DNA from: Thermoplasmata archaeon
GTDB lineage: Archaea > Thermoplasmatota > E2 > UBA202 > JdFR-43
Direction of reading: 5' to 3'
NCBI GenBank assembly: GCA_021162065.1
Contig: JAGGZK010000049.1
Span: forward strand, 11,952-75,951
DNA: 64,000 bases
The translations under genes and the position numbers were made by a program. Positions 10,890 through 55,609 of the stretch are shown piece after piece (the stretch's first letter is position 1; every line of letters starts with the position of its first letter). Under the pieces are notes generated by a model, which searched no databases, was not told the DNA's origin, and saw only the letters and a list, made by a program, of their open reading frames with translations.

Positions 10890-11026
10890 TTTTTCACCGC
10901 GGGTAATACCAATACTAAATATAAACTTTAGTTGAGAAATGCTAACATTTATCACGAAAATGAATTAAAGGGTTAGATGCTAATAATCCAGAATGGATAA
11001 GGAACCACCTCCTGAAGGCGATATGC

Positions 11027-19539: not shown

Positions 19540-20088
19540 ATGGATGAAATGGAGCATCTGAGGCAAGTGCTTGATTATATGCCCTGCAGTATATGCGAAA
19601 ATGTTGTGCCGGAGGAGGAAAGGAGATACATGTGCAGCATATGCGCCAGGATAAATAGAATCGTCTCCGCCGACAGGGCCATTCCCAAATGGAGGGTGGA
19701 TGAGGATGGTAACATAGTCCCCATAGAGGGAATGGACATGGAGGAACTCAAGCCAAGCATAAAGGTTATTGAAGAAGGAGAGGAGGAGGAAGAAAAGGAG
19801 GAGAAGGTTGAAATAGAGGTTCTCGAGGTTGGAGAGGATATAAAGGAGGAAGAGCTCACCATAGAGGAGGAGCTCCCAGAATGGGAGGCAATGGGAGATG
19901 AGGTTTACAAACATGGCGACTACACTCTTTACACCAAGGAGGTTATTCTGAGGGGTGGGAGAAAACAGAGGATATACTTCTTCAGCAAAAAGGAGGTGCA
20001 GGACGCAACCCCTTCACCGCTGCCAGAAGGTTATGAAGTGGGCATAAATAAGAGGACGGGACTTCCATATCTGAGAAAGAAGAAATAA
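19540..20088 (+). CDS. Hypothetical protein with N-terminal CxxC zinc finger and highly acidic E/K-rich linker
   Basis: 'CSICEN...CSICARI'. A ~50-aa Glu-rich low-complexity segment. Basic C-terminal end. Confidence 0.4.
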   Translation: MDEMEHLRQVLDYMPCSICENVVPEEERRYMCSICARINRIVSADRAIPKWRVDEDGNIVPIEGMDMEELKPSIKVIEEGEEEEEKEEKVEIEVLEVGEDIKEEELTIEEELPEWEAMGDEVYKHGDYTLYTKEVILRGGRKQRIYFFSKKEVQDATPSPLPEGYEVGINKRTGLPYLRKKK

Positions 20089-21059
20089 TGCTGGAGCAAC
20101 TCGACTATAATCTTCCCAGGGAGAGAATTGCACAGAAACCGTGGATTCCAAGGGATGAGTGCAACCTTCTTGTTTTGAATGGAGACGAGATAGAGCACAG
20201 GAAGTTCTATCATATTCTGGATTATGTTGGAAAAGGGGATGTTGTCATAATGAACAACACCCGTGTCATGAAGGTGAGATTGAAGGGGATAAAAGAAACG
20301 GGAGGAAAACTTGATTTGCTGGTGATAGGAAAGGAAGGAGAATATTACAAATGTCTGGTGAAGGGAAAATACAGGGAGGGCACATCCTTTTATCTGGGAG
20401 AGCATAGGGCTACAATAATAAAAAAGGATGAGGGAATGTGTCTCATTTCCATCCCACTTGAAATGGAGGAGATAAAGAAAATGGGCATCATGCCCACTCC
20501 GCCATACATAAAGGAGGAGGTGAGGGATGAAGAGTGGTATCAGACGGTGTTTGCAAGGGAAAAGGGCTCCATAGCAGCACCTACAGCAGGTCTTCATTTC
20601 ACCCCGTCGCTCCTCAAAAGGATGGAGGAGAAAGGAGTGAAAATTGTCTTTATCACCCTCCATGTGGGCCTTGCCACCTTTCTTCCGCCTGAGAGAATAA
20701 GGGAGGCAAGGGAATACTATCGCATTGGGGCCAGAGAGGCGGAAATCATTAACAGTGCTGATGGAAGAGTTATTGCAGTAGGGACAACCACCGTCAAGGC
20801 TCTGGAGAGCGCCTCGGAAAATGGAAGGGTGAGAGCATCTTCCGGCTGGAGCAATCTTTTTATCTCTCCCGGCTATGAATTCCAGTCGCCCATAAACGGA
20901 ATGCTCACCAACTTCCATATGCCAAAGTCATCACCTTTGCTTCTAACAACCGCCTTTGGAGGAGTGGAGAGGGTGATGAAGGCATATGAGGAGGCACTGA
21001 AAAGGGATTACAGATTTCTCAGCTTCGGAGATGCCATGCTCATACTCAAAAATGTTTGA
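20088..21059 (+). CDS. queA: S-adenosylmethionine:tRNA ribosyltransferase-isomerase (QueA)
   Basis: 'LDYNLPRERIAQKP...R..LLVL', 'GD.V.MNNTRV...RL.G.K.TGGK...L', 'PTPPYI', and 'GSIAAPTAGLHFT' are hallmark QueA blocks. Confidence 0.8.
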   Translation: MLEQLDYNLPRERIAQKPWIPRDECNLLVLNGDEIEHRKFYHILDYVGKGDVVIMNNTRVMKVRLKGIKETGGKLDLLVIGKEGEYYKCLVKGKYREGTSFYLGEHRATIIKKDEGMCLISIPLEMEEIKKMGIMPTPPYIKEEVRDEEWYQTVFAREKGSIAAPTAGLHFTPSLLKRMEEKGVKIVFITLHVGLATFLPPERIREAREYYRIGAREAEIINSADGRVIAVGTTTVKALESASENGRVRASSGWSNLFISPGYEFQSPINGMLTNFHMPKSSPLLLTTAFGGVERVMKAYEEALKRDYRFLSFGDAMLILKNV

Positions 21060-22062
21060 AATAACGGCTGAAAATGGAAGGGCAAGAACAGGGGTGCTCA
21101 GAGCGGGCAATATGAGTGTGGAAACTCCCGCCTTTCTCCCGGTGGCGACAAAGGCCTTCATAAAGACTCTGACTCCCGATGAGGCGAAGAGGACAGGGGT
21201 TAAGGCGATAATAGTCAATGCCCTCCACATATACAGGAGAGCGTATGATGTGGTGTCGAAAATAGGGCTGCATGAATTCATGAAATGGGACGGCATAATA
21301 TTTACCGACAGCGGCGGTTTTCAATCCATAAAGAAGTTTCCCGCCGATGCTGGCCAGGACGGCGTAACCTTCATGATGCCCGATGGAAGAAAGGAGATAT
21401 TCACTCCTGAAAAGTCCATGGAGGTGCAGAAGGCGATAGGAAGCGATTTTTTATTTGCCTTGGATGATTGTCCATCATATCCCTACACAAGAGAGAGGGT
21501 GGAGGAATCGGTGGAGAGGACAATAAAATGGGCAAGGAGATGCCAGGGAGAGAGACATTTTGCCATTCTTCAGGGAGGGGTGTATGCAGACCTCAGAAAA
21601 AAATGCGCAAAGGAGATATCGCAGATGGACTTCTTCGGCTTTGCCATAGGTGGGCTCTGCATAGGGGAGCCCAAGGAGGAGATGCACCATATGGTGGATG
21701 TCACAACACCTCTGCTACCAAAGGAAAAACCCCGTCATCTCATGGGAGTGGGCTCGCCGGAGGACATAATGGCATGTGTGGAGAAGGGCATAGATATATT
21801 CGACAGCGCCTTTCCCACGAGAAATGCGAGGCATGGAACCATCTTCACAAGCCATGGAAAAATAAATCTCGGAAAAGGGAAAGTGAGAGGGGATGCCATA
21901 GATGAAGAGTGCAATTGCTACACATGCAGGAACTTCTCCTTAGACTACTTAAACTATCTTTTCAGGGAGAAAGAAACCCTGGGAATGAGGCTCGCCACCA
22001 TACACAATCTTGCCTACATGAACGACCTTATGGAAAGAATAAGGGAGAAGATAAGGGGCTAA
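21052..22062 (+). CDS. tgt: Queuine tRNA-ribosyltransferase (tRNA-guanine transglycosylase), short bacterial-type without PUA/C-terminal arcTGT domains
   Basis: 'FEITAENGRARTG', 'VETPAFLPVATKA', 'LHEFMKWDGIIFTDSGGFQ', and the Zn site 'CNCYTCRNFS...H'. ~337 aa from the chosen start 'MFEIT' (the ORF track starts 21 nt earlier at 21031). Confidence 0.85.
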   Translation: MFEITAENGRARTGVLRAGNMSVETPAFLPVATKAFIKTLTPDEAKRTGVKAIIVNALHIYRRAYDVVSKIGLHEFMKWDGIIFTDSGGFQSIKKFPADAGQDGVTFMMPDGRKEIFTPEKSMEVQKAIGSDFLFALDDCPSYPYTRERVEESVERTIKWARRCQGERHFAILQGGVYADLRKKCAKEISQMDFFGFAIGGLCIGEPKEEMHHMVDVTTPLLPKEKPRHLMGVGSPEDIMACVEKGIDIFDSAFPTRNARHGTIFTSHGKINLGKGKVRGDAIDEECNCYTCRNFSLDYLNYLFREKETLGMRLATIHNLAYMNDLMERIREKIRG

Positions 22063-30538: not shown

Positions 30539-30622
30539 ATTTCTGAAGGAAAAATCATTACTTATGGTTTGTGAAAGATGATGCCATGGTGACCAAAAAA
30601 ATATATATCTCTCTAAGGCATT

Positions 30623-31873
30623 ATGCTCGTGAACAGCACTGTAATCCAGAAGATAATGGGAGAAAAGGTGGGCAGGAAGGTGGAGGTGGGGGAGAAAATA
30701 CTTCTCCCTCTTGATCTGGTGGTTATGAGGGATTTTGGAGGACCGAATGTAATAAAAAAATATGTAGAGAAGTTTGGAGAGGAAAGGCCATTGGATGCCA
30801 GAAAAATTGCCTTCACCTTCGATTTGCATCTGCCGGCAAGGCAGATAAAGGAGGCGGAGAATCAAAAGGCATGCAGGGAATTTGCCAAAAAATACGGGAT
30901 AAAGGTTTTTGATGTCAACAATGGCATAGGGCAGCACACCCTGCTGGAAAATGGCATGATAAAGCCGGGAAGCGTCGTTATAGGAACGGACAGCCACATG
31001 AATCTGCTTGGGGCAGCCAATTCCTTTTCCACAGGCGTTGGTACAACAGACATAGTGGCGGGTATGAGATTCGGAAAAACATGGTTTAAAGTTCCGGAGA
31101 CAATAAAGATAAATGTGGAGGGCGGGCTGAGTAAAGGCGTGTATGCCAAGGATTTGATTCTTCATATTGTGAAGACGCTGGGCTCAGATGGCGCCGCCTA
31201 TAAGGCGGTGGAGTTCTATGGCGATATCATAGAAAAAATGAATCTGGCAGCGAGGATAACCATGGCCTCCATGGTAACGGAGATGGATGGGAAAATCTCA
31301 TTTTTCCCGATGAACGACGCAGCCAAGGAGGAACTCAGGAAGTACGTAAGCTTTGACAAAGTCTACAACGCCGATGGGGATGCGGAGTATGCGGAGGAGT
31401 ACACCATAGAAACGCCATCTTCCCCCCAGATTGCGTGTCCCCATTCCCCCGATAACGTAAAAAGCATTGAAGAAGTGGAGGGCGTGGAAATAAATCAGGC
31501 CTTCATTGGCTCCTGCACCAATGGACGTCTGGAAGATTTGAGGGAAGCGGCAAAGATATTGAAGGGCAGGAAAATCAAGGAGGGCTTCCGTTTAATAATA
31601 ACGCCTGCCACCATAAATGTGGCGAGGGAGGCGGAGGAGAGAGGTTACATAAAAATCTTCCTGGAGGCAGGGGCAATAGTGACCAATCCCTCCTGCGCTT
31701 TATGCACCATAGGGCATCCGGGCGTGCTTGCCACAGGCGATGCAACGCTTTCCACATCCAATCGCAACTTTCCGGGCAAGATAGGGAAGGGCAGCATATA
31801 TCTCTGCTCTCCTGCCGTTGCCGCCTACTCGGCGATAAAAGGAAAAATAGCAGATCCGAGGGAGGTATTATGA
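30623..31873 (+). CDS. leuC: Aconitase-family hydro-lyase large subunit, LeuC/HACN type (3-isopropylmalate/homoaconitate dehydratase large subunit), copy 1
   Basis: 416 aa. 'GIGQHTLLENG', 'VIGTDSHMNLLGAA', 'AFIGSCTNGR', 'NPSCALCTIGH', 'TSNRNFPGK'. Aconitase Fe-S ligand cysteines present. Confidence 0.8.
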   Translation: MLVNSTVIQKIMGEKVGRKVEVGEKILLPLDLVVMRDFGGPNVIKKYVEKFGEERPLDARKIAFTFDLHLPARQIKEAENQKACREFAKKYGIKVFDVNNGIGQHTLLENGMIKPGSVVIGTDSHMNLLGAANSFSTGVGTTDIVAGMRFGKTWFKVPETIKINVEGGLSKGVYAKDLILHIVKTLGSDGAAYKAVEFYGDIIEKMNLAARITMASMVTEMDGKISFFPMNDAAKEELRKYVSFDKVYNADGDAEYAEEYTIETPSSPQIACPHSPDNVKSIEEVEGVEINQAFIGSCTNGRLEDLREAAKILKGRKIKEGFRLIITPATINVAREAEERGYIKIFLEAGAIVTNPSCALCTIGHPGVLATGDATLSTSNRNFPGKIGKGSIYLCSPAVAAYSAIKGKIADPREVL

Positions 31874-32361
31874 GAGGGAAAGTATGGAAATTTGGAGATG
31901 ATATAGATACCGACCAAATCTACCCGGGAGCATATCTTACGGTTACTGACGAGGATGAGATGGCGAAATATGCCATGACGGGGGTGGAGGGAAGAGAAAA
32001 CTTTGCGGATGTTGTGAGCAAAGGCGATATAATCGTTGCCGGCAAAAATTTTGGATGCGGTTCTTCCAGAGAGCATGCCCCCATGGCCATAAAGAAACTG
32101 GGTATAGCATGCGTCATAGCCAAATCCTTTGCAAGAATTTTTTACAGAAACGCCATAAACATAGGGTTGCCAGTCATAGAATTAAAGGAGACGGATGAGA
32201 TAAATGAAGGGGATGAACTGGAAGTGGATGTGCATGAGGGCGTGATAAAAAATCTTACCACGGGAAAGGTTTACAAAGCAATGCCCATGGGAGAGCTGGA
32301 AAGGAAAATAATGGAAGCGGGAGGGCTTATAGAGTATTTGAGGGGAGAAAATGAAGGATGA
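31870..32361 (+). CDS. leuD: Aconitase-family small subunit, LeuD type, copy 1
   Basis: 'MRGKVWKFGDDIDTDQIYPG', 'GKNFGCGSSREHAP', 'FARIFYRNAINIGLP'. ATGA overlap with the upstream stop. Confidence 0.8.
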   Translation: MRGKVWKFGDDIDTDQIYPGAYLTVTDEDEMAKYAMTGVEGRENFADVVSKGDIIVAGKNFGCGSSREHAPMAIKKLGIACVIAKSFARIFYRNAINIGLPVIELKETDEINEGDELEVDVHEGVIKNLTTGKVYKAMPMGELERKIMEAGGLIEYLRGENEG

Positions 32362-32866
32362 ATATATAAGGCAACTGTTTCCAGAGGTGGAGGAGATAGA
32401 GAGCAAAGAATTAAGGAATAAAGTTGTTAAAATATGGGCTAAGGCCATGGAGATGGGAGGTTGGAATAAAATAGATGACATACCCTTCACCCTGCTCATA
32501 ACCACGGATAAATCACTTGTAAGCCATACACGAATGATTGTTAAAATGGCCATGGCGGTGGCGGATGAGAGAAAAGATTTGGACAGGGATGCGGTGATAG
32601 CAGGGGCATTGCTTCATGATGTGGGCAAGCTGCTGGAGTATGAGAGAAAGGATGGGAAAGTTGTGAAAAGCGGGATGGGAAAAAGAATAAGGCATCCCGT
32701 TTCCGGCGCCGCCCTCGCCATGGAGGAGGGATTGGACAGCATAGCCCACATAATAGCAGCACATTCCAAGGAGGGGGAGTTTGTGGAGCGCAGCAAAGAG
32801 GCGATACTGATTCATCATTGCGATTTCATAGATTTTGAGATTGAAAAGGCAAAGGTGAAGAAGTGA
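32351..32866 (+). CDS. HD-domain metal-dependent phosphohydrolase
   Basis: 'HTRMIVKMA...AGALLHDVGK' (H...HD) and a later 'HH.D'. 171 aa. Embedded in the leuCD/citF operon. Confidence 0.6.
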   Translation: MKDEYIRQLFPEVEEIESKELRNKVVKIWAKAMEMGGWNKIDDIPFTLLITTDKSLVSHTRMIVKMAMAVADERKDLDRDAVIAGALLHDVGKLLEYERKDGKVVKSGMGKRIRHPVSGAALAMEEGLDSIAHIIAAHSKEGEFVERSKEAILIHHCDFIDFEIEKAKVKK

Positions 32867-34272
32867 AGGGGAGGGAGGCAAAAATAACGGAGTTAAAAAA
32901 TGCACTGAAGAAGTGCGGGATTAAGGACGGCTGCACCATCTCCTTCCATCATCAGCTCCGCAATGGAGACAACGTCATCAATTTAACGCTTGAGGCGGTG
33001 AGGGAGTTAGGAATCAAAAACATACGGCTTGCCCAGACTGCCATATTTGATGTTCATAAGCCGGTGATAGAGTATATAGAGGATGGAACCATAGGAAGCA
33101 TAGAGGGAAGCATAAACGGCATTGTGGGCGATTATGTTTCAAAAAATCCCATGGAAAAGCCAGTCATCCTGAGAAGCCACGGAAGAAGATGGGGCGATGT
33201 GAGGAACGGCACACTTCATATAGACATCGCTGTCATAGCAGCCTCGGCGGCAGATGAAATGGGAAACTGCACGGGCATAATCGGAAAGAATCCCTTTGGC
33301 CCCATCGCATACTCTCAAATGGATGCCATGATGGCCGACAGGGTCATAGTGGTTACCGATACCCTTGAAGAATATCCCTGTCCCTATCAGGAAATAACGG
33401 AGAATTATGTTGATTATGTGGCTGTGGTGGATAACATAGGAGATCCATCGAGAATAGCATGGGGAACAACGAAAATAACCACGGATCCGGTAAAGCAGAA
33501 AATTGCCCACAACTGCGTCGATTTTATGGAAGCAGCGGGCATTGTAAGGGATGGTATGGGTTTTCAGTTCGGGGCAGGTGGAACATCGCTTGCAGTAACG
33601 AAATATCTTGGCGATTTACTGAGGGAGCGCAATATAAAGGCTTCCTTTGCCATAGGAGGAGTAACGAAGATACTGGTGGATATGTTTAAGGAAGGGCTTA
33701 TAAAGAAACTCTTCTACGGCCAGTGCTTTGATGACCATGCGGTAAAATTCTTTGCCGAACGCCCTTTGAATACGCCGGTCATGAACGTGGGCAACTATGC
33801 AGATCCGGAGGGCAAGAGCAGGGCAGTGGAGAGCTTAGATGTGGTGGTGCTCGGAGGGACGGAGGTGGACACAAACTTCAATGTGAATGTGAACACCCAC
33901 AGCGATGGCCGCCTCCTTCATGGCATAGGAGGACATCAGGACACGGCGGCGGGGGCAAAGGTGACGATGATAGCATTGCCCATATATAGAAAGACGAATC
34001 CCATTGTGAGGGAGAAGGTCACCACAATAACAACTCCTGGAGATGTGGTTGACGTTGTCGTCACGGATGTGGGAATAGCAATAAATCCCAGAAGAAAGGA
34101 TTTGATGGAAAAGGTAAGGGGAATGGATGTTTTCTCCATAGAGGAGCTGAAGGAAATGGCGTATGCCCATACAGGAGAGCCGTTGCCGCCATCCACTGGC
34201 AAGGAGGTTGTGGCGGAGGTCAAATGGATTGACGGGAATGTAATCGATAAAGTTTACAGAGTGGTGGAATAA
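32863..34272 (+). CDS. citF: Citrate lyase alpha-subunit family (citrate CoA-transferase, CitF)
   Basis: Colinear with recalled E. coli CitF: 'DGCTISFHHQLRNGD.V.N', 'HIDIAVI.A...DE.GN', 'QFGAGG.SLAVT', 'FNVNV.T.SDG...GIGGH.DTA', and the C-terminal 'TGEPLP.....VVAEVKWIDGNVIDKVYRV'. Confidence 0.75.
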   Translation: MKGREAKITELKNALKKCGIKDGCTISFHHQLRNGDNVINLTLEAVRELGIKNIRLAQTAIFDVHKPVIEYIEDGTIGSIEGSINGIVGDYVSKNPMEKPVILRSHGRRWGDVRNGTLHIDIAVIAASAADEMGNCTGIIGKNPFGPIAYSQMDAMMADRVIVVTDTLEEYPCPYQEITENYVDYVAVVDNIGDPSRIAWGTTKITTDPVKQKIAHNCVDFMEAAGIVRDGMGFQFGAGGTSLAVTKYLGDLLRERNIKASFAIGGVTKILVDMFKEGLIKKLFYGQCFDDHAVKFFAERPLNTPVMNVGNYADPEGKSRAVESLDVVVLGGTEVDTNFNVNVNTHSDGRLLHGIGGHQDTAAGAKVTMIALPIYRKTNPIVREKVTTITTPGDVVDVVVTDVGIAINPRRKDLMEKVRGMDVFSIEELKEMAYAHTGEPLPPSTGKEVVAEVKWIDGNVIDKVYRVVE

Positions 34273-35322
34273 ATGGAATGGGAGACGTATATAACAAAAA
34301 TAGAGCCCAATGTCATAGCCATAAGAGGATATCCCATACAAAAGCTGATAAAGGAAAGGGATTTTTTCGACTCCCTTCATTTAATAATCACGGGCGAGTT
34401 TCCCGATGGGGAGAAAAAGAGAGGAATGGAGGAGATGTTTGGGAAAGCAATATCTCTGCCTGTAAATAAATTTGAAAGGTTTGAAAAGGAGGACATATCG
34501 AAGGTGCTGGCGAGATATCTATTAATGGATGAGCATCTCGTTTCTTTTGATGGGGAAAAGGAGGAAAGGGCTGCGTTCATGGCAGGAAGAATGGTAACTT
34601 ATCTTTCCTCCATCTATTCCGTGGAAATCAATGGCCAGGAATTTTCTCATATCCTTTCTGGAGTTCTTTCAGGAGATGGAAATGGAAAATATGCGAGAAT
34701 GATGGAGGCAATGGTTATCGCTTCCTTAGATCATGGAGTTACGCCCCCTTCTGTTCAATCAGCCGTAATTGCCGCCTCTGTCCGTGCATCCCATGAGGTA
34801 GCCATGGCAAATGGCATCTCTGCCATTACAGATGTGCATGGAGGGGCGGGGATGAAGGCAGCAGAATTCTTCAAAAAATGTGTGGAGATGGCGGAAAGGG
34901 AGCAAATGGACATAGAGGAGGCGGCGAGGAAGATGGTCATGGAATATGTGGAGCAGGGAAAGAGAATAAAGGGACTGGGGCATCGTATTCATTCCGCCGA
35001 CCCAAGAAAAGATGCATTGCTGGAGATTGCGAGGAAGGAAGGCATAGATGGCGATGCTGTCAGGGTGGCAGAGATGCTTGAAGATATATTTTATGAGGTG
35101 AAGGGGAAAAGGTTGCCGCTCAACGTTGATGGAGTCATAGGGGCGTTGGTGGCGGATATGAATCTTAAACCTGAGGTGGCGAAGATATTATTTATATATG
35201 GTAGGGTTGCGGGGCTTTCCGCCCATTATTTCGAGGAAGTGGAAAATTATCCGCCCATGAGGAGAATAGATTTCTCCAGGGCGGTTTATAAGGGAAAGGA
35301 GGTGAAAGATTGGGAACCTTAG
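34273..35322 (+). CDS. Citrate-synthase-family protein, minimal (349 aa): candidate citryl-CoA lyase / small citrate-type synthase
   Basis: All three citrate synthase catalytic positions are recognisable: 'DVHGGAG' (His), 'GLGHRIHSADPR' (His), 'LPLNVDGVIGALV' (Asp). N-terminal 'IRGYPIQKLI...FFDSLHLIITGEFP' resembles CS 'YRGY.I.DL....F.EV.YLL..G.LP'. About 30-80 aa shorter than typical archaeal citrate synthases. Confidence 0.7.
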   Translation: MEWETYITKIEPNVIAIRGYPIQKLIKERDFFDSLHLIITGEFPDGEKKRGMEEMFGKAISLPVNKFERFEKEDISKVLARYLLMDEHLVSFDGEKEERAAFMAGRMVTYLSSIYSVEINGQEFSHILSGVLSGDGNGKYARMMEAMVIASLDHGVTPPSVQSAVIAASVRASHEVAMANGISAITDVHGGAGMKAAEFFKKCVEMAEREQMDIEEAARKMVMEYVEQGKRIKGLGHRIHSADPRKDALLEIARKEGIDGDAVRVAEMLEDIFYEVKGKRLPLNVDGVIGALVADMNLKPEVAKILFIYGRVAGLSAHYFEEVENYPPMRRIDFSRAVYKGKEVKDWEP

Positions 35323-36563
35323 CGGAGAATATTCTTGCAGAAGCAAGCGGGAAGAGTGTATCACCAGGGGAGATTGTTTATGCGGGCGTTGATACGGCCA
35401 TGTCCCATGAGAATGCCGCCCTCGTGATAAGATGGTTCAGAGAAATAGGAAGAGAAAGGGTGTGGGATAACGAAAAGATTGTTATAATATTCGATCATCG
35501 TGTGCCCGCTGAATCAATAAAAACGGCTGAGGGGCAGAAGAAGATAAGGAACTTTGTCAAGGAGCAGGGGATAAAGCACTTCTACGACATAAACACGGGC
35601 ATATGCCATCAGGTGCTGGCAGAGAAGGGCTTTTCACGCCCTGGAATAGTGCTTGTTGGCACCGACAGCCATACCACAACAGCAGGGGCATTCGGGGCAT
35701 TCGCCACAGGCATAGGGGCAACGGAAATGGCGGGAGTATGGGCAACGGGCAGAATATGGTTCAAGGTGCCGGAGACAATAAAGATAAATGTGGAGGGTGA
35801 GTTGAGCAAGGGTGTGTATGCTAAAGATGTTATACTCCACATCATAGGCCATCTGAGAGCAGATGGTGCCAACTACATGGCGGTGGAGTTTGATGGAGAT
35901 ACAATCAAAAACATGAGCATTGCATCCAGAATGGTTCTCTCCAATCTTTCCATGGAAATGGGAGCGAAGGTGGCCTTTGTCTATCCCGATGAAAAAACAA
36001 AGAAATGGCTGGAGGAAAGGAAGGCAAAGCCATACAGATTCATTCTTCCTGATAAAGAGGCAAGATATGTGGATGAATACAACTTTGATGCCTCGGAGAT
36101 AACGCCAAAGGTGGCATGCCCCCATACCGTGGATAACGTAAAAAGCATTGAGGAGGTTGAAGGCACAGAGATAAATCAGGCCTTCATCGGCTCCTGCACC
36201 AATGGACGCCTGGAGGATCTAAGGGAGGCGGCGAAGATATTGAAGGGAAGAAAGGTTAAGGAGGGGGTGCGTTTGATAATCGGCCCCGCATCATGGGAGG
36301 TTTACAGGGATGCCATGAGGGAAGGTTTGTTAGACATATTCATAGAGGCGGGGGGCGTGATAATAAATCCGGGTTGTGGACCCTGCTTGGGCGCCCATCA
36401 GGGAATACTTGCCTCTGGTGAGGTGGCCATATCCACCACCAACAGAAACTTCCAGGGAAGGATGGGCTCCCCGGAATCATTTGTGTATCTCGCCTCTCCC
36501 GCTGCCGTGGCTGCTTCAGCCATAGAGGGAAAGATAGCAGACCCAAGAAAATATTTGAGGTGA
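35310..36563 (+). CDS. leuC: Aconitase-family hydro-lyase large subunit, LeuC/HACN type, copy 2
   Basis: 417 aa paralog of 30623..31873 with the same motif blocks ('VLVGTDSHTTTAGA', 'AFIGSCTNGRLEDLREAAKILKGRK', 'NPGCGPCLGAH', 'TTNRNFQGR'). Confidence 0.8.
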   Translation: MGTLAENILAEASGKSVSPGEIVYAGVDTAMSHENAALVIRWFREIGRERVWDNEKIVIIFDHRVPAESIKTAEGQKKIRNFVKEQGIKHFYDINTGICHQVLAEKGFSRPGIVLVGTDSHTTTAGAFGAFATGIGATEMAGVWATGRIWFKVPETIKINVEGELSKGVYAKDVILHIIGHLRADGANYMAVEFDGDTIKNMSIASRMVLSNLSMEMGAKVAFVYPDEKTKKWLEERKAKPYRFILPDKEARYVDEYNFDASEITPKVACPHTVDNVKSIEEVEGTEINQAFIGSCTNGRLEDLREAAKILKGRKVKEGVRLIIGPASWEVYRDAMREGLLDIFIEAGGVIINPGCGPCLGAHQGILASGEVAISTTNRNFQGRMGSPESFVYLASPAAVAASAIEGKIADPRKYLR

Positions 36564-36567
36564 TGAG

Positions 36568-37050
36568 ATGGGCAAGGTATGGAAATTTGGAGATGATGTA
36601 AATACAGATGTGATTTATCCGGGATATGCTCTCAAGGTCACCAATCCGGATGAGATGGCAAAGTATGCCTTTGCGGAGGTGTATCCCGAATTCTCAAAAG
36701 AGGTGAAGGAGGGCGATATAATCGTTGCTGGCAAGAATTTTGGATGCGGTTCCTCCAGAGAGCAGGCGGCGCTGTGTTTAAAGTATGTGGGCATCTCATG
36801 CGTCATAGCCAAATCCTTTGCAAGAATTTTTTACAGAAACGCCATAAACATAGGGCTTCCGGTCATAGAATTAAAGGAGACGGACGAGATAAATGAGGGG
36901 GATGAGCTGGAAGTGGATTTGAATGAGGGTATTCTGAGGAATGTAACGCAGGGAAAGGAATATAAGATAAAGCCGTATCCTGAAATAATCAGGAGAATAA
37001 TAGATGCCGGAGGCCTGATAAATTATCTGAAGGAGGGAAAAAATGTATAA
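36568..37050 (+). CDS. leuD: Aconitase-family small subunit, LeuD type, copy 2
   Basis: 'MGKVWKFGDDVNTDVIYPG', 'GKNFGCGSSREQAA', 'FARIFYRNAINIGLPVIELKETDEINEGDELEVD' (nearly identical to copy 1 over this block). Confidence 0.8.
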   Translation: MGKVWKFGDDVNTDVIYPGYALKVTNPDEMAKYAFAEVYPEFSKEVKEGDIIVAGKNFGCGSSREQAALCLKYVGISCVIAKSFARIFYRNAINIGLPVIELKETDEINEGDELEVDLNEGILRNVTQGKEYKIKPYPEIIRRIIDAGGLINYLKEGKNV

Positions 37051-38149
37051 AATAGCCATACTGCCGGGAGATGGAGTGGGAAAGGAGGTTATAGAAGCGG
37101 CGATGATGGTGCTTGAAAAGGTTGAATTGGACGCGGAATACATATACGGAGACATAGGATGGGAGTTCTGGAGGAAGGAGGGAAATCCCCTGCCGGAGAG
37201 GACCATAGAACTGCTTAAGGAAACGGATTGCGCTTTAATGGGTGCCATAACATCCAAGCCAAAAAAAGAGGCGGAGAAGGAACTGGCACCGGAATTGCAG
37301 GGGAAGGGTCTGGAGTATTACAGCCCCATTGTGGCATTGCGCCAGCTCTTCAACCTCTACGCCAACATAAGGCCTGTGAAGGCGTATGAAGGCAATCCTC
37401 TGAATTTTAAAGAAAACATCAACCTTGTCATTTTCAGAGAAAACACGGAAGGGCTGTATACAGGCGTTGAATATCGCCCGGTTCCAGAGGAACTGGAGGA
37501 GGTGCTTGCGAAACATGAAAGATATAAGAAGTTCGTGGGAAAGGAGAAGGCCATATCCCTCCGCATAATATCAAGGGAAGGGGCGGAGAGGATAGTGAGA
37601 AAGGCCTTTGAGTATGCCAGGGAGAATAATCTTGGCAAGGTAACGGTGGCGGAGAAACCCAATGTGCTTAGGGAGACGAGCGGCCTTTTTGTGGAGGTGG
37701 CAAGAAAGATACATGAGGAATATGGAGAGATAGAGATGGATGAGGCGAACATAGATGCGATGGCCATGTGGCTGATAAAGAATCCGGAGAACTATGATGT
37801 CATCGTCACATCCAACCTATTTGGAGACATACTATCCGACCTGGCGAATCAGCTTGTGGGCGGCCTTGGCTTCGCCGCCGCCGGTAACGTGGGAGATGAC
37901 TATGCTTTATTTGAACCCGTGCATGGCTCCGCTCCAAAATATGCTGGCATGTATAAAGTAAATCCGATAGCGACGATAAGGGCTGCGGTGATGATGCTTC
38001 TTTATCTCGGCGAGAGAGAGAAGGCAGAGGCAATAGAGTATGCCATTGAGGAGGTTGTCAGAGAGGGTAAGGTAAGAACATATGACATGGGCGGCAATGC
38101 TTCCACTTTGGAAATGGCGGAGGCAATAGCAGGGAAGATAGAGGGCTAA
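37043..38149 (+). CDS. Beta-decarboxylating dehydrogenase (isocitrate / isopropylmalate / homoisocitrate dehydrogenase family)
   Basis: 'KIAILPGDGVGKEV', 'SPIVALRQLFNLYANIRPV', 'NLFGDILSDLA', and C-terminal 'YDMGG.AST.EM'. Substrate specificity is not assignable by eye. Confidence 0.8.
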   Translation: MYKIAILPGDGVGKEVIEAAMMVLEKVELDAEYIYGDIGWEFWRKEGNPLPERTIELLKETDCALMGAITSKPKKEAEKELAPELQGKGLEYYSPIVALRQLFNLYANIRPVKAYEGNPLNFKENINLVIFRENTEGLYTGVEYRPVPEELEEVLAKHERYKKFVGKEKAISLRIISREGAERIVRKAFEYARENNLGKVTVAEKPNVLRETSGLFVEVARKIHEEYGEIEMDEANIDAMAMWLIKNPENYDVIVTSNLFGDILSDLANQLVGGLGFAAAGNVGDDYALFEPVHGSAPKYAGMYKVNPIATIRAAVMMLLYLGEREKAEAIEYAIEEVVREGKVRTYDMGGNASTLEMAEAIAGKIEG

Positions 38150-45296: not shown

Positions 45297-47559
<2,263 letters not shown>

Positions 47560-47724: not shown

Positions 47725-48762
47725 GTGATAAATATGGGAGTGAAAATTGCTAAAAACAGAGTAAATGAATTCTTGAAATACCTTAAAGAGGAATACATTC
47801 TTTATGCTCCTGTTGAGGAAAACGGTGTTTCAAAAATTTCTAAGATAGAGGATACATCGGACATAATAAATCTTCCATATAGAACACAAATATCTTTAAA
47901 ACCCATATTTTTCCCCCCTGAACAAAAATTTTTCAGGTTTGAGAAAAAAAATGGAGGAGTTGAGATTGAAGACTATCTTCCGCAGGAAGGTGATGATAAG
48001 AGCATAATCTTCGGCGTGCGTGGTTGCGATGTTAATGCTATTGAGGTTCTGGATAAATATATGTTGGATGAATTTGAGGATCCCTACTACAGGAAAAGGC
48101 GGGAGAATGCTATAATTATAGGCATCTCCTGTGACTATCCAAAAGAATCCTGCTTCTGCACCGCCTTCGGAGGAATGGTGCCAGAGAGATATGATCTCTG
48201 GTTTACAGATATTGGCCCCCATTTCTATGTCGATATTGGCAGTAAGAGAGGGGAAAAATTGATTGATGACAAATTTTTTGAGGAGGCATCTGAAGAAGAT
48301 GAAATGAGAAAAATTCGAAGAATAAACTCCGTAGAAACCAAGATAAATCGGAAAGTGAAAACGAATCTACATGATATAAAAAAATATTATCATAAGATAA
48401 AAAACAGGGCTGATGATTCAATATGGGAAGAACTCGGAAGAAAATGTGTCTCCTGTGGAAAATGCAATTTCATATGTCCCACATGCCACTGCTTTGACGT
48501 GAAAGACATGACAAATATTGACGGCAGTGCTGGAGAAAGAATAAGAGTGTGGGACTCATGTCATCTTTATGATTATGCAAAGACCTCTGCAGAGAATTTC
48601 AGAGAGGAGAGAAAAGCAAGGGTGAGATACAGGATATATGATAAATTTGTTTTTCCGGTTATGAGATACGGTGTCTATGCATGCACTGGATGTGGAAGAT
48701 GTAGTGAGGTTTGTCCTGCCGGAATAGATATCCATGCAGTTGTAAGGAGGTTGATAAAATGA
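47725..48762 (+). CDS. hydB: Cytoplasmic NiFe sulfhydrogenase beta subunit (Fe-S)
   Basis: Cys clusters 'CVSCGKCNFICPTCHCFD' and 'CTGCGRCSEVCPAGI'. First gene of the hydBGDA-like run. Alternative start at 47734. Confidence 0.7.
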   Translation: MINMGVKIAKNRVNEFLKYLKEEYILYAPVEENGVSKISKIEDTSDIINLPYRTQISLKPIFFPPEQKFFRFEKKNGGVEIEDYLPQEGDDKSIIFGVRGCDVNAIEVLDKYMLDEFEDPYYRKRRENAIIIGISCDYPKESCFCTAFGGMVPERYDLWFTDIGPHFYVDIGSKRGEKLIDDKFFEEASEEDEMRKIRRINSVETKINRKVKTNLHDIKKYYHKIKNRADDSIWEELGRKCVSCGKCNFICPTCHCFDVKDMTNIDGSAGERIRVWDSCHLYDYAKTSAENFREERKARVRYRIYDKFVFPVMRYGVYACTGCGRCSEVCPAGIDIHAVVRRLIK

Positions 48763-49574
48763 ATAATCCATATCTTCCTGCTGTAGCCAGAATAACTGAT
48801 ATAATAGAGGAAACCCCAGATACAAAAACTTTTGTTATATCATCGCCCCTCAAATTCAAACCCGGACAGTTTGTGGAACTCAGCATTTTTGGATATGGAG
48901 AGGCACCAATATCAATTTCTGGTGGAAATGAAAAAAGTATAGATTTAACAATAAGAGCTGTGGGAAACATTACAAAAAAGATTCACAGGATGAACGTGGG
49001 AGATTATGTTGGAATAAGAGGGCCCTTTGGCAATGGATGGCCCGTAGAAAGGGCGGAGGGAAGGAATCTCCTCATAGCAGCAGGCGGCATAGGTCTGGCA
49101 CCATTAAAGCCCGTAATCGAGTATGTTTGCAACAACAGAAAAAAGTTCAGGAATGTGACATTGCTCTATGGCGCAAGAAAACCCTCTCTGATGCTTTTCA
49201 AATACAAATTAGAGGAATGGTCAAAACACATGGATGTTCTGTTAACAGTGGACGAGCCAGAAGAAGGTTGGAAAGGGAATGTGGGCGTTGTAACAACACT
49301 TTGTGACAGGATAAAACACGTTTCAGATACTGTAACACTGATGTGTGGCCCACCCATAATGATGAAGTACACATCCATTTCCCTTATGGAACTCGGCTTT
49401 CCAACAGGCGAGATGTATCTATCTCTGGAAAGGAATATGAAATGTGGCATAGGAATATGCGGGCATTGCGCCGTCGGCGGCCTGTATGTTTGCAGAGATG
49501 GCCCTGTATTCTCCCTGAATGACGCCCTTAAACTTATTGAAAAGCCGCACGAGGTGCAGGGGGTGATAGATTGA
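48759..49574 (+). CDS. hydG: NiFe sulfhydrogenase gamma subunit (FAD/NAD(P)-binding, 2Fe-2S)
   Basis: FNR-like 'GQFVELS', 'LLIAAGGIGLAPL', and C-terminal 'CGIGICGHCAVGGLYVCRDGPVF'. ATGA overlap with hydB. Confidence 0.75.
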   Translation: MNNPYLPAVARITDIIEETPDTKTFVISSPLKFKPGQFVELSIFGYGEAPISISGGNEKSIDLTIRAVGNITKKIHRMNVGDYVGIRGPFGNGWPVERAEGRNLLIAAGGIGLAPLKPVIEYVCNNRKKFRNVTLLYGARKPSLMLFKYKLEEWSKHMDVLLTVDEPEEGWKGNVGVVTTLCDRIKHVSDTVTLMCGPPIMMKYTSISLMELGFPTGEMYLSLERNMKCGIGICGHCAVGGLYVCRDGPVFSLNDALKLIEKPHEVQGVID

Positions 49575-50317
49575 ATATAGGCATATTTTCTCTTTCATGC
49601 TGCGAGGGTTGCTCTGTGCAATTTCTCAACTTGGAGGCAAAAATTCTTGAAATTCTTAAATACCTAAATATAAAAAATTTCAGGCTCGCCAAAGAGTACA
49701 ACGAGATGCCCGTAGATATAGCCTTTGTGGAAGGAACACCGACAACAAGAGAAGAGGTACTAAAATTACTTACGATACGAAAGGAGAGTAAAATACTGGT
49801 GGCTCTGGGAACATGTGCCGTCACTGGAGGAGTGCCTGGACTGGTAAACATGATGGCCAAAAAGGAAGCCATGGAGGTTTATGATGGTTTTCCTCCAGAT
49901 GTGCCCATAGATCCCAAACCGTTGGAATACTATGTAAATGTGGACTACAACATTTATGGATGCACCTTCTCAAAAGACGAGTTGATTGAACTCATAACCT
50001 CACTTATTATTGGTAAAGAATACCGGGATAAGGAATACAGCGTGTGTGTGGAATGCTCCCTGCGAGAGAATAACTGTCTCCTTGATGATGGCCATCTATG
50101 TTTGGGGCCCATAACAAGGGGCGGCTGCAAGGCACTCTGCCCAAATAATGGAAAAATGTGCCTTGGTTGCCGCGGCCCATATGAGGATGCCAATATCAAG
50201 GGACATATAAAGATTCTTCAGGATATGGGATTCACCAAAGATGAAATAATAGAGAGTCTTTCCCTTTTTTCATATGAAAAATTTAAGGAGGTTATATCAT
50301 GGCTAAAAGAAGAATAA
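49571..50317 (+). CDS. hydD: NiFe hydrogenase small (delta) subunit
   Basis: 'IGIFSLSCCEGCSVQF' proximal-cluster motif, 'GTCAVTGGVPG', 'CVECSLREN', 'CLGCRGP'. Apparent TTG start overlapping the hydG stop. Confidence 0.8.
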   Translation: MNIGIFSLSCCEGCSVQFLNLEAKILEILKYLNIKNFRLAKEYNEMPVDIAFVEGTPTTREEVLKLLTIRKESKILVALGTCAVTGGVPGLVNMMAKKEAMEVYDGFPPDVPIDPKPLEYYVNVDYNIYGCTFSKDELIELITSLIIGKEYRDKEYSVCVECSLRENNCLLDDGHLCLGPITRGGCKALCPNNGKMCLGCRGPYEDANIKGHIKILQDMGFTKDEIIESLSLFSYEKFKEVISWLKEE

Positions 50318-51564
50318 GCATTAAGGAGATAACAAAAATAGAGGGACATGCCAATCTTAGTGTAGAACTGGAAGATGACAAAATCAGGCGTGTGATATTT
50401 GGTGTTCACGAGGGTTCACGATACTTTGAAGCATTTATGAAAGGGAAAAATTACATGTATATCCATGAGCTGGCAGGTAAAGTGTGTGGGATATGCACCG
50501 TAGCCCATGAACTTGCAAGCATAAAAGCTGTAGAAAATGCCTTGGAGATTGAAGTTCCAGAAAATGTAGAGAGAATAAGAGAGATGATGCTCATAAGCTC
50601 CCACATCCAGAGCCACATTCTCCACCTCTACTTTCTTGCCCTCCCTGATTATGTAAATGCCGAGAGTGCAATAGAGATGGCTGAAAGAGATTATGACCTT
50701 GTCAAAAAGGCATTTCGCATAAAGGAGGCGACAAATTACATGACAGCACTGCTTGGGGGAAGGGAAGTGCAACCCTGCACTCTGGTTCCAGGAGGATTCA
50801 GTAAAAGAATAACCAAGGATGTGATAGAAAGATACATAAAAAAAATGAAAGAAATATATCCCCTTCTGGTGGAAACGGCTGAACTGTTTTCATCTCTCGA
50901 ATACCCACACTTCGAAAGAAAGAGCGATTATGTATCGCTTTACGATGGAAAAAGCATACCTCTCTATAATGGAAAAATAAAAACTCTTCATATGGAATTT
51001 GAAGGCGAGGAATATGAAAAGCATTTTGAGGAATATGTGGTGAATTACTCCTCTGCCAAGAGATCGTTAGTTGGAGGGAGGGATTACATGGTGGGCGCCC
51101 TCGCCAGATTGAATATAAATCCATATCTTAGGGAAGAGGCGAAGGATATCGCCCTCTCCTATTCCATTAAATTCCCCAGCGATAGAGTTGCCTGGATAAA
51201 TGTTGCCCAAGCCATAGAGAATGTGCATTACGCCATAGAAGCCATGGAAATAGCAGATAATGTTAAGGAATATGAGCCGATGCACATTTCTCCCAAAAAT
51301 ATTGATGGAGAAGGAATATCTGCTATTGAAGCGCCCAGAGGATTGCTGATTCACCATTACAAATTTAAGAATGGCAAATGCACCTATGCAAATATAATAA
51401 CTCCCACTGCCATGAATACAGAGAACATCGAAAGGAATCTGGAGGAATACCTTAAAGATATTGCAGGAGAAAGTGACGAAGTCATAAAAAAGGAAGCTGA
51501 GAAGATAATACGGGCTTATGACCCCTGTATTTCCTGTTCTGTACATGTGATCAGGACAAAATAG
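50299..51564 (+). CDS. hydA: NiFe hydrogenase large (alpha) subunit, group 3b-like
   Basis: N-terminal 'KIEGHANL', 'AGKVCGICTVAH' (CxxC Ni ligands), and C-terminal 'DPCISCSVHVI' (DPCxxCxxH). Confidence 0.85.
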   Translation: MAKRRISIKEITKIEGHANLSVELEDDKIRRVIFGVHEGSRYFEAFMKGKNYMYIHELAGKVCGICTVAHELASIKAVENALEIEVPENVERIREMMLISSHIQSHILHLYFLALPDYVNAESAIEMAERDYDLVKKAFRIKEATNYMTALLGGREVQPCTLVPGGFSKRITKDVIERYIKKMKEIYPLLVETAELFSSLEYPHFERKSDYVSLYDGKSIPLYNGKIKTLHMEFEGEEYEKHFEEYVVNYSSAKRSLVGGRDYMVGALARLNINPYLREEAKDIALSYSIKFPSDRVAWINVAQAIENVHYAIEAMEIADNVKEYEPMHISPKNIDGEGISAIEAPRGLLIHHYKFKNGKCTYANIITPTAMNTENIERNLEEYLKDIAGESDEVIKKEAEKIIRAYDPCISCSVHVIRTK

Positions 51565-55531: not shown

Positions 55532-55609
55532 GATGATGCATTGCACAGGAGTTTAAAATGTTTCTCCACATCAAAGGTAGTTATTTATATGCCAAAACAT
55601 ATTCTTTCC

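Follow-up and report, generated by a model that had tools for sequence, protein, structure and literature searches.

What does an operon make, or take apart, when it sets a coenzyme A (CoA)-transferase of the citrate lyase family and a citrate-synthase-fold protein among two pairs of LeuCD-like hydro-lyase subunits, an HD-domain protein and a beta-decarboxylating dehydrogenase? This question is raised by positions 30623-38149 (+ strand) of a 64,000-nucleotide stretch of contig JAGGZK010000049.1 from a Thermoplasmata archaeon, a stretch that we refer to as the window. We propose, with fair though not high confidence, that the operon specifies a single unbranched path, probably reversible, that joins oxaloacetate plus acetyl-CoA or acetate to 2-oxoglutarate plus CO2 via citrate, in which the CoA-transferase CitF and a citryl-CoA lyase (CCL) would share the citrate-cleaving or citrate-forming step. 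The proposal is carried by family memberships, conserved catalytic residues, a tight operon, and the recurrent co-occurrence and interchange of modules among distant genomes.

The operon and its CitF-CCL pair

The eight open reading frames (ORFs) found in this interval (ORF list) encode, in order, a LeuC-like and a LeuD-like protein (LeuC1 and LeuD1), the HD protein, CitF, CCL, a second LeuC-like and a second LeuD-like protein (LeuC2 and LeuD2) and the dehydrogenase. The first three gene pairs overlap by 4, 11 and 4 nt, the fourth pair abuts directly (0 nt), the fifth overlaps by 13 nt, the sixth is parted by 4 nt and the seventh overlaps by 8 nt. A preliminary description of this DNA had listed the same-strand genes, tight junctions and families, which the ORF list and Pfam bore out, and had left it conceivable that the adjacency was coincidental; the identical eight-gene order on at least four independent metagenome assemblies and the same gene set in distant phyla speak against coincidence. 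In one assembly (L002; GCA_054010735.1, JBPCYZ010000057.1, 6351-7601), LeuC1 of an otherwise identical operon is called in two pieces of 335 and 64 aa, which is a frameshift or an assembly error. An 84-nt spacer parts the operon from a divergent upstream gene for an RNase P Rpr2 subunit, and within this spacer we read a TATA-box-like A/T stretch (AAAAAATATATATC; 30596-30609, + strand) that ends 14 nt before the ATG at 30623, a candidate archaeal promoter that would give a leaderless or short-leader transcript. The downstream neighbour, a metallophosphoesterase gene, is convergent. Rfam and tRNA scans revealed no RNA element inside the operon, and composition gave no trace of recent acquisition, since the GC content of 0.47-0.49 across 28-38 kb equals that of the left flank; the window also holds genes for Rpr2, Pus10, DUF432 and an IleRS with DUF5915, which mark the organism as an archaeon. 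In the NCBI protein records of the eight genes (MCD6481613-MCD6481620, 'Thermoplasmata archaeon' metagenome-assembled genome [MAG]), the LeuCD genes are named 3-isopropylmalate dehydratase, CitF (MCD6481616.1) 'citrate lyase subunit alpha' and CCL (MCD6481617) 'hypothetical protein'.

A Pfam scan of the approximately 56 ORFs of the window revealed no LeuA/HMGL-type synthase, as the preliminary description had said, and likewise no CitE (HpcH_HpaI), ATP-grasp or CoA-ligase domain and no CitC/CitG/CitX-like match; leuA, leuB, ilv and lysWXYZ genes are also missing from the window. A tblastn search of the window with a query taken to be E. coli CitD returned nothing at E ≤ 10, and, since no junction exceeds 13 nt, the operon has no room for a CitD gene.

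The fourth gene (32863-34272, + strand, 469 aa, GTG start) encodes CitF, a citrate CoA-transferase of the citrate lyase alpha-subunit family (Pfam CitF, E 6e-138). It scores 504.6 bits against the citF equivalog TIGR01584 of NCBIfam, just above the cut-off of 501.45. Its alignment with Salmonella CitF (1xr4; E 5e-113; residues 7-466) covers the whole protein, and its N-terminus is approximately 40 residues shorter than in most relatives. We surveyed CitF neighbourhoods in a metagenome scan that gave 80 loci at 49-99% identity, with counts taken only over judgeable loci. In 55 of 68 loci the gene right after CitF is a CCL gene, and in 47 of 63 the one right before it is an HD gene. The arrangement met most often is [AcnX small] - HD - CitF - CCL - type-A aconitase-family protein. 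Of the aconitase-family genes, type A (defined below) has the closest linkage to the lyase. HD-CitF-CCL occurs without the rest of the module in L005 and L008-L010. Some CitF relatives at approximately 50% identity adjoin CitE (HpcH_HpaI) instead, followed by acetate-kinase-like genes, which indicates that a CCL of the citrate-synthase fold has apparently displaced CitE as the lyase partner of CitF. Membership of CitF in citDEF-type loci, which the preliminary description had weighed against its own reading, is thus seen in part: relatives at ≥55% identity lie outside such loci, and some at approximately 50% stand beside CitE.

Several further CitF arrangements were observed. In L165 (3965-7444) and L167 (1895-6433), the order is CitE - CitF - acetate/butyrate-kinase-like genes and no CitD-sized ORF was noticed between them; these loci may be another arrangement of citrate lyase that lacks an acyl carrier protein (ACP) in metagenomes. 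A gene for the AcnX 'swivel' small subunit (PF01989; 127-144 aa) is seen repeatedly just before HD-CitF-CCL or HD-CcsA-CCL in Thermoplasmatota (L005 [1942-2325], L016, L018, L028, L037, L042, L045, L053, L063 and L067, plus 18 loci of the CitF survey), which may reflect a functional link or lineage synteny. In Asgard MAGs of Heimdall-, Hod- and Hermodarchaeota (L019, L020, L023, L030-L033 and L036), a CitF of 513-526 aa is encoded divergently beside a pair of genes, CcsA and CcsB-CCL, that resembles ATP-citrate lyase (ACL), so that CitF accompanies the ATP-dependent form too. In two bacterial loci CitF precedes an ACL-like pair, and L088 holds both systems side by side.

CCL (34273-35322, + strand, 349 aa; Pfam Citrate_synt, E 3e-36), the 'long' form of a citrate-synthase-fold lyase, finds its best NCBIfam matches in citryl-CoA lyase families (NF004866, 206 bits, below the cut-off of 245), whereas citrate synthase models give ≤81 bits. 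Its best PDB match is Hydrogenobacter thermophilus Ccl (6hxp; E 2e-33), compared with E 1e-13 or worse for solved citrate synthases and E 1e-8 to 1e-5 for ACLY structures. The catalytic residues H189 (DVHGGAG), H237 (GLGHRIH) and D286 (NVDG), which the preliminary description had rightly recognised as retained His/His/Asp positions, are invariant across 35 homologues, as are R245, R311 and R330, the oxaloacetate-binding arginines of citrate synthase. Many homologues of 44-50% identity carry fused Ligase_CoA and Succ_CoA_lig domains, and a scan with one genome per species revealed that the dominant form of the clade is a 700-720-aa CcsB-CCL fusion after a 427-aa ATP-grasp subunit; this CcsB-CCL clade is 33% identical to the canonical AclA of a bacterial locus (L012, described below). 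Because fusions with an ATP-grasp partner dominate the clade, we interpret the window protein as a stand-alone CCL module. The NCBIfam matches, the 6hxp match and the fused relatives point to a citryl-CoA lyase of the Ccl/ACL-CCL lineage instead of the 'minimal citrate synthase' named at first. We rejected a housekeeping citrate synthase on the bit scores, on a Ccl being the best structure and on a clade made up mostly of CcsB-CCL fusions. The view that CCL would cleave citryl-CoA without thioester hydrolysis is argued indirectly, from clade members fused to CcsB-like domains, and our neighbour-joining tree of CCL domains is too rough to count the origins of the stand-alone, CitF-linked form. 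Family matches and the lack of CitD and CitE in the window agree with an ACP-less, citrate-lyase-like pair, as had been supposed.

A conserved module with an exchangeable activating enzyme

Genes of related loci were called by a simple longest-ORF procedure and assigned to families through their best BLAST matches within a small set of references. Round CCL homologues this revealed a set of genes that recurs, [IDH-like] - HD - [fused 600-aa aconitase-family protein] - [LeuC-LeuD] - (CcsA + CcsB) - CCL, where IDH stands for isocitrate dehydrogenase, in Myxococcota, Planctomycetota and Heimdallarchaeia, with variants in Bathyarchaeia and Bipolaricaulota; in most loci of Aminicenantes the lyase genes have as neighbours just the HD and fused aconitase-family genes. 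The set of type A, type B, dehydrogenase, HD and lyase is also present in WOR-3 and Thermoplasmatota, and gene order varies across phyla. Among 50 loci with at least 6 kb upstream, the features found within 9 kb of CCL were HD in 38, a type-A aconitase-family gene in 26, a type-B one in 22, both types in 19 and an IDH-like dehydrogenase in 14. In most other relatives CCL is fused to CcsB after CcsA, in the ACL-like manner, and once more has HD, type A, type B and IDH as neighbours.

The interchange is clearest in two genomes. On a complete WOR-3 chromosome (L096) the order is IDH - LeuCa-LeuDa - HD - CcsA - CcsB - short Ccl - LeuCb-LeuDb, the same order as in the window with CcsAB and a short Ccl in place of CitF and the long CCL, and this short Ccl passes the NCBIfam cut-off for citryl-CoA lyase (299 bits). 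A Methanomassiliicoccales MAG (L098) holds the same gene set, again with CcsAB and a short Ccl. Because the isomerases, the HD protein and the dehydrogenase of the window share 51-65% identity with their L096 and L098 counterparts, whereas CCL is only 37% identical to their short Ccl, the lyase/activation block appears to have been swapped as a unit, which argues for CitF and CCL as the functional equivalent of CcsAB and Ccl.

One bacterial locus sets the module beside a second citrate-cleaving-type system: in L012 (475-12681 of a 1.1-Mb contig) the order IDH - HD - fused aconitase-family - LeuCD - CcsA - CcsB - CCL is followed by aclB-aclA, which raises the question of whether the two share a substrate. 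We also noticed an HDOD-domain gene between the fused aconitase-family gene and LeuC in L011 (5234-6136) and L075, in clusters that have no adjacent Ccs gene.

The LeuCD genes of the operon had been described as a duplicated cassette into which the lyase was spliced. Identity between the pairs LeuC1 (30623-31873, + strand, 416 aa; Pfam Aconitase, E 3e-80) with LeuD1 (31870-32361, + strand, 163 aa; Aconitase_C, E 3e-21) and LeuC2 (35310-36563, + strand, 417 aa, TTG start; Aconitase, E 1e-106) with LeuD2 (36568-37050, + strand, 160 aa; Aconitase_C, E 1e-21) is 50% for the large and 68% for the small subunit; the longest ORF of LeuD1 spans 31702-32361 and its true start is the ATG at 31870, in agreement with gene calls on other contigs. 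Alignment with the copies of other genomes revealed two orthologous types: type A comprises LeuC1/LeuD1, the first copies of L096 and L098 (L096a and L098a) and the fused 600-aa AcnF, and type B comprises LeuC2/LeuD2, the second copies of L096 and L098 (L096b and L098b) and the LeuCD of the bacterial clusters. A recent tandem duplication was rejected, as LeuC1 groups with L096_LeuCa, L098_LeuCa and AcnF and LeuC2 with the other copy of each genome; the operon thus holds two ancient orthologous types that co-occur with HD, CCL and the IDH-like enzyme in Bacteria and Archaea.

Both types keep their Fe-S cysteines (CA[LG]C in type A, CGPC in type B). The first motif is RDFGG in type A and (S/T)H(E/D)N in type B, compared with VHDIT in the isopropylmalate isomerase (IPMI) of M. 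jannaschii; FDH of type B is FD[LC]x in type A, with loss of the His; GICHQ becomes GIG[QT]H; and NRNFxGR becomes NRNFxGK. LeuC1 accordingly retains the three [4Fe-4S] cysteines (GSCTNGR, CALC) in a remodelled active site, with RDFGG for xHDxT/SHEN, FDLH for FDH, GIGQH for GICHQ and NRNFPGK for NRNFxGR, whereas LeuC2 has the canonical IPMI/homoaconitase motifs SHEN, FDH, GICHQ, DSHT, GSCTNGR, CGPC and NRNFQGR; the canonical catalytic His and Arg of the large subunit are kept in LeuC2 and changed in LeuC1, its L096 orthologue and the fused AcnF. The changed positions are presumably the equivalents of Gln72, His101, His147 and Arg452 of pig aconitase, and because these four are changed we regard type A, as judged from its motifs, as a distinct, previously uncharacterised subfamily.

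LeuC1 has NCBIfam matches at subfamily level only, its best solved relative is the M. jannaschii IPMI large subunit (E 5e-99), and it is 54% identical to L096_LeuCa, 57% to L098_LeuCa and 40-43% to the fused bacterial AcnF. LeuD1 keeps the catalytic motif FGCGSSRE, has the specificity loop YPGAYLTVTD and shares 57% identity with the type-A small subunits found in L096 and L098, compared with 46-49% for the type-B ones there. LeuC2 shares 61-65% identity with the type-B subunits in these two genomes and 46-51% with LeuC of the bacterial clusters, and LeuD2 likewise keeps FGCGSSRE, has the loop YPGYALKVTN and scores 228.8 bits against TIGR02084 (cut-off 245.85). No cultured organism was seen with a type-A enzyme, the best 120 matches being all metagenomic. 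Placement of type A in the 'putative aconitase' family TIGR01342/PRK07229 was unsupported, the fused AcnF scoring 313 bits against a cut-off of 612.

The two pairs look alike locally because of patches that look like lineage-specific gene conversion, which would have spared the N-terminal regions that define the active site. In LeuC1/LeuC2 these patches join 31428-31599 with 36109-36280 (81% nucleotide identity) and 31073-31167 with 35748-35842 (80%), and in LeuD1/LeuD2 they join 32014-32285 with 36703-36974 (82%), all on the + strand. Inside the patches protein identity is 93-100% in the window, compared with 40-66% between types A and B of other genomes.

The HD/HDIG-domain protein (32351-32866, + strand, 171 aa; Pfam HD, E 7e-11; TIGR00277 HDIG), to which the preliminary description had given no role, ranks among the best-conserved proteins of the module and surpasses the neighbouring enzymes in conservation, with copies in WOR-3 bacteria and Aciduliprofundum that are 57-64% identical. 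Its metal-ligand set H...HD...H...H...D is complete (H59, H89-D90, H115, H138 and D158, in invariant columns), and K93, E96, R114 and E141 are invariant too. The AlphaFold model (predicted local distance difference test [pLDDT] score of 97) matches best the HD domain of YhaM (E 6e-6), other fold matches being generic HD phosphohydrolases; as to function, sequence and fold searches returned only such generic enzymes (YhaM, PgpH, YqeK and dNTPases), and no fusion partner was present among the best 120 homologues. The HD gene is found with both the ATP-dependent and the CoA-transferase forms of the lyase, so a role in activation chemistry is unlikely; in Aciduliprofundum boonei it lies away from any lyase gene. 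A different HD protein, dGTPase-like with HD_assoc_2, is encoded elsewhere in the window (59083-60285, - strand), and a gene of the same architecture directly follows a type-A LeuC without an adjacent small subunit in L097 (11245-12489).

The dehydrogenase (37043-38149, + strand, 368 aa; Pfam Iso_dh, E 2e-97) belongs to the IDH/isopropylmalate dehydrogenase family, passes no NCBIfam equivalog cut-off and has as best PDB match the NAD-IDH 6lky (E 6e-77), followed by Thermus homoisocitrate dehydrogenase. It carries the insertion SKPKKEAEKELAPELQGKGLEYY and then SPIVALRQ; an insertion of the form SKPKKxAxxELxPxLxGKGxxY and the SPIV motif are common to all cluster-associated homologues, among them those of the L012, L013, L096 and L098 clusters (50-65% identity). 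YSPIVALRQ aligns with RSVNVTLRQ of 6lky, and on E. coli IDH we take the Ser113 equivalent to be kept and the Asn115 equivalent to be Ile; Arg85 of homoisocitrate dehydrogenase is absent. The APKYAG motif resembles, as we read it, that of the NADP-dependent E. coli IDH. We tentatively assign the protein as an isocitrate dehydrogenase of an unusual subfamily, which is the weakest assignment in the chain.

A proposed route via citrate and its alternatives

In the proposed route, CitF would catalyse citrate + acetyl-CoA <-> (3S)-citryl-CoA + acetate, and CCL would catalyse citryl-CoA <-> acetyl-CoA + oxaloacetate. The isolated alpha subunit of citrate lyase accepts free acetyl-CoA (EC 2.8.3.10). 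The net would be the citrate lyase reaction, citrate <-> acetate + oxaloacetate, with acetyl-CoA needed in catalytic amounts only and with neither ATP nor an acyl-carrier subunit, so that thioester energy would be neither spent nor wasted. LeuCD1 and LeuCD2 would then interconvert citrate, cis-aconitate and isocitrate, with type A most likely handling the citrate half and type B the isocitrate half, and the dehydrogenase, probably NADP-dependent, would catalyse isocitrate + NADP+ <-> 2-oxoglutarate + CO2 + NADPH. We infer the substrates, this split of half-reactions and the coenzyme. The second of two readings in the preliminary description, a compact branch from citrate through isocitrate to 2-oxoglutarate with an ATP-independent citrate step, is the one that fits the evidence best.

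Desulfobacter postgatei reportedly uses ACL in the citrate-forming direction. Published reaction energies lie near equilibrium for CCL (-2.1 kJ/mol) and citryl-CoA synthetase (CCS; -5.9 kJ/mol), compared with +38.8 kJ/mol for cleavage by citrate synthase (PMC13147460). As CoA transfer is roughly isoenergetic and CCL is near equilibrium, the lyase step of the window should run either way. Three directions are compatible with the operon: anabolic supply of 2-oxoglutarate with the thioester kept, citrate cleavage, and reductive carboxylation of glutamate-derived 2-oxoglutarate. A glutamate dehydrogenase gene (9537-10955, - strand; ELFV_dehydrog, E 4e-81) lies 20 kb from the operon and is separately transcribed, and its product possibly links the 2-oxoglutarate end of the route to glutamate; aminotransferase genes flank the loci of relatives, and a CitMHS-type transporter gene flanks that of L098. 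This context is compatible with all three directions.

Several observations weigh against this route. CCL falls under the curated cut-offs of all citryl-CoA lyase models, a shortfall that coincides with approximately 90 extra residues (48-139) relative to Aquificae Ccl, and it may also hydrolyse citryl-CoA and so be a true citrate synthase, a difference that sequence cannot tell. LeuC2 reaches 545.9 bits against the methanogen homoaconitase model HacA_Meth, nearly at the cut-off of 550. Type A, having no equivalent of aconitase His101 and differing at other sites, may not act on citrate or cis-aconitate. One canonical aconitase would do for this route, which does not account for the conserved need for two hydro-lyases and the HD protein. 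The best-scoring models of the dehydrogenase are those of homoisocitrate dehydrogenase (AksF2; none passed), and the enzyme has no equivalent of the Asn115 of true isocitrate dehydrogenases and carries its subfamily-specific insertion. Finally, the L012 module stands directly beside a canonical aclBA pair, which could mean that its substrate is different.

Another reading, which we hold to be possible though unlikely, is that the operon is the CoA-transferase form of a widespread, unnamed module of type A, type B, HD protein, SPIV dehydrogenase and CCL with an exchangeable activator, shared by many uncultured anaerobic Archaea and Bacteria. Here type A, without the His101 equivalent, and a dinuclear HD enzyme would catalyse the non-textbook steps, which would have no described counterpart, the HD protein as an oxaloacetate decarboxylase or tautomerase being one possibility. 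The module would serve a redox-neutral conversion of glutamate to acetate and pyruvate, running from glutamate to 2-oxoglutarate, isocitrate and citrate by reductive carboxylation and then to acetate and oxaloacetate; such a route would be an alternative to the methylaspartate pathway, and reversed it would amount to energy-conserving citrate synthesis.

The elongation or shortening of 2-oxoacids, the other reading of the preliminary description, would have CCL condense acetyl-CoA with a non-citrate acceptor such as 2-oxoglutarate, CitF release the acid, the two LeuCD types carry out the isomerisation at one or two chain lengths and the dehydrogenase decarboxylate the product, as from homocitrate to 2-oxoadipate. 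The near-miss of LeuC2 at the homoaconitase cut-off, the best dehydrogenase score against AksF2, the Ile at the Asn115 position as in Thermus homoisocitrate dehydrogenase, the conservation of two distinct isomerase types and the canonical ACL adjoining the L012 module are all in its favour; however, the equivalog-level match of CitF to a citrate enzyme, the invariance in CCL of the residues that bind oxaloacetate in citrate synthase, and the exchange of CitF and CCL with CcsAB and a Ccl that passes the citryl-CoA lyase cut-off have weakened it, and the dehydrogenase keeps the Ser113 equivalent and is without the Arg85 of homoisocitrate dehydrogenase. Moreover, we know of no citrate-synthase-fold enzyme that uses 2-oxoglutarate as acceptor. 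We judge this reading improbable.

It is at least as improbable that the operon is a functional mosaic, in which CitF and CCL, with the HD protein, would be a stand-alone lyase for citrate fermentation, and one or both LeuCD pairs and the dehydrogenase would be co-transcribed for leucine/isoleucine or lysine (alpha-aminoadipate) synthesis. HD-CitF-CCL does occur alone, NCBI labels the LeuCD genes as 3-isopropylmalate dehydratase, and archaeal LeuCD/LeuB-like enzymes can have broad specificity. Yet the same set recurs with changing order in Myxococcota, Planctomycetota, WOR-3, Heimdallarchaeia, Bathyarchaeia and Thermoplasmatota, the type-A enzyme directly follows CCL in the commonest CitF context, the window has no leuA, leuB, ilv or lysWXYZ, and the type-A active site is unlike that of IPMI.

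A propionyl-CoA variant, in which CCL would form or cleave 2-methylcitryl-CoA and two hydro-lyases would handle stereochemistry in the manner of AcnD or PrpD followed by AcnB, is very improbable: it would explain two non-equivalent conserved hydro-lyases, one with a remodelled site, and the citrate synthase family does include 2-methylcitrate synthases (weak NCBIfam matches), but CCL models far outscore those of 2-methylcitrate synthases, the family match of CitF is to the citrate enzyme, and the methylcitrate cycle ends in 2-methylisocitrate lyase instead of a beta-decarboxylating dehydrogenase, with no PrpB or PrpF homologue, and no HMGL-like one either, seen in the related clusters inspected. 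We retain the probably reversible route between oxaloacetate and 2-oxoglutarate via citrate as our reading of the operon.

The rest of the window and known citrate-cleaving systems

Elsewhere in the window, a QueA gene (Queuosine_synth, E 9e-102) overlaps a short TGT gene of 343 aa (E 9e-125) at 20088-22062 (+ strand); such a queuosine pair is of bacterial type, whereas an archaeal genome would be expected to carry an archaeosine-type TGT, and the pair may have been acquired horizontally. A DHODB-type Fe-S/FAD subunit and a GltD/NfnB-like subunit are encoded at 45297-47559 (+ strand), followed at 47725-51564 (+ strand) by a 4Fe-4S protein, an NAD-binding/Fe-S subunit and the small and large subunits of a NiFe-hydrogenase, a four-gene set similar to a group 3 hydrogenase of the sulfhydrogenase type, as would suit an anaerobic fermenter. 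Large predicted surface proteins (PKD, Big, NosD/beta-helix), together with two Peptidase_C25 (gingipain-like) genes, occupy 2-1030, 16317-18779, 51684-57124 and 60273-63854 and suggest extracellular protein degradation.

The means of citrate cleavage listed in current surveys are ATP-citrate lyase, CCS/CCL and reversible citrate synthase (for example, PMC13147460 and PMC9802188). Our full-text search of the literature found these three and CitDEF, together with ACL and CCS-CCL homologues reported in Asgard archaea, Bathyarchaeota and Thermoplasmatota; the literature searched held no CitF-CCL system, no HD companion of such lyases and no type-A hydro-lyase, and nothing on CitF in Thermoplasmatota, on an HD domain with ACL or on a citrate route of glutamate fermentation. 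The remark that no described pathway has this gene combination therefore stands for the literature searched. The chemistry is known (EC 2.8.3.10 and EC 4.1.3.34); what is new is the combination of enzymes, in a conserved module undescribed in the papers searched. If our reading is correct, CitF with CCL would be a further solution to citrate cleavage, near equilibrium and without ATP or an acyl-carrier subunit, and one that would be missed by marker-based predictions of tricarboxylic acid (TCA) cycle or reductive TCA capacity. The loci compared show that the activating half is exchangeable (CcsAB, CcsB fusion or CitF), as is the lyase partner of CitF (CitE or CCL), which bears on how ACL and citrate synthase evolved. 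The HD protein and the remodelled type-A hydro-lyase are testable targets for biochemistry in the central carbon metabolism of sediment lineages that are abundant but uncultured.

Among known systems, the bacterial citrate lyase CitDEF (EC 4.1.3.6, with CitC/CitG/CitX), known from citrate fermentation, shares with the window the CitF family and the same predicted net reaction via a citryl thioester with no ATP per turnover. Unlike CitDEF, the window has no CitD, no CitE (HpcH/HpaI TIM-barrel) and no CitC/CitG/CitX; the lyase step would be carried out by an unrelated citrate-synthase-fold protein, and the thiol carrier would be free CoA. CcsAB with Ccl, as in Hydrogenobacter thermophilus and Leptospirillum, has a lyase of the same fold and lineage and works in two steps through free citryl-CoA, and in the CcsAB-Ccl clusters of WOR-3 and Methanomassiliicoccales the operon context is that of the window. 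In contrast to these systems, the window would form citryl-CoA by CoA transfer from acetyl-CoA and not by an ATP-dependent synthetase, and its CCL is approximately 90 residues longer. The architecture of ATP-citrate lyase (AclAB/ACLY) is shared by the closest relatives of CCL, with their CcsB-CCL fusion after a 427-aa ATP-grasp subunit; the window itself differs in having no ATP-grasp or CoA-ligase domain, and the clade is distant from canonical ACL. The archaeal IPMI and methanogen homoaconitase (LeuCD, HacAB) and the AksF/LeuB dehydrogenases are of the same families, the former also being heterodimeric Fe-S hydro-lyases, but the window has no LeuA/AksA-type synthase, type A has lost the FDH His and carries four other motif changes, and the dehydrogenase forms a separate subfamily with its insertion and SPIV motif. 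The reversed oxidative TCA cycle (Desulfurella, Thermosulfidibacter) relies on a reversible citrate synthase that is likewise ATP-independent, of the citrate-synthase fold and active in both directions; this enzyme is a true citrate synthase, for which cleavage costs the +38.8 kJ/mol given above (PMC13147460), whereas the system in the window would conserve the thioester by CoA transfer, so that its citrate step should lie near equilibrium.

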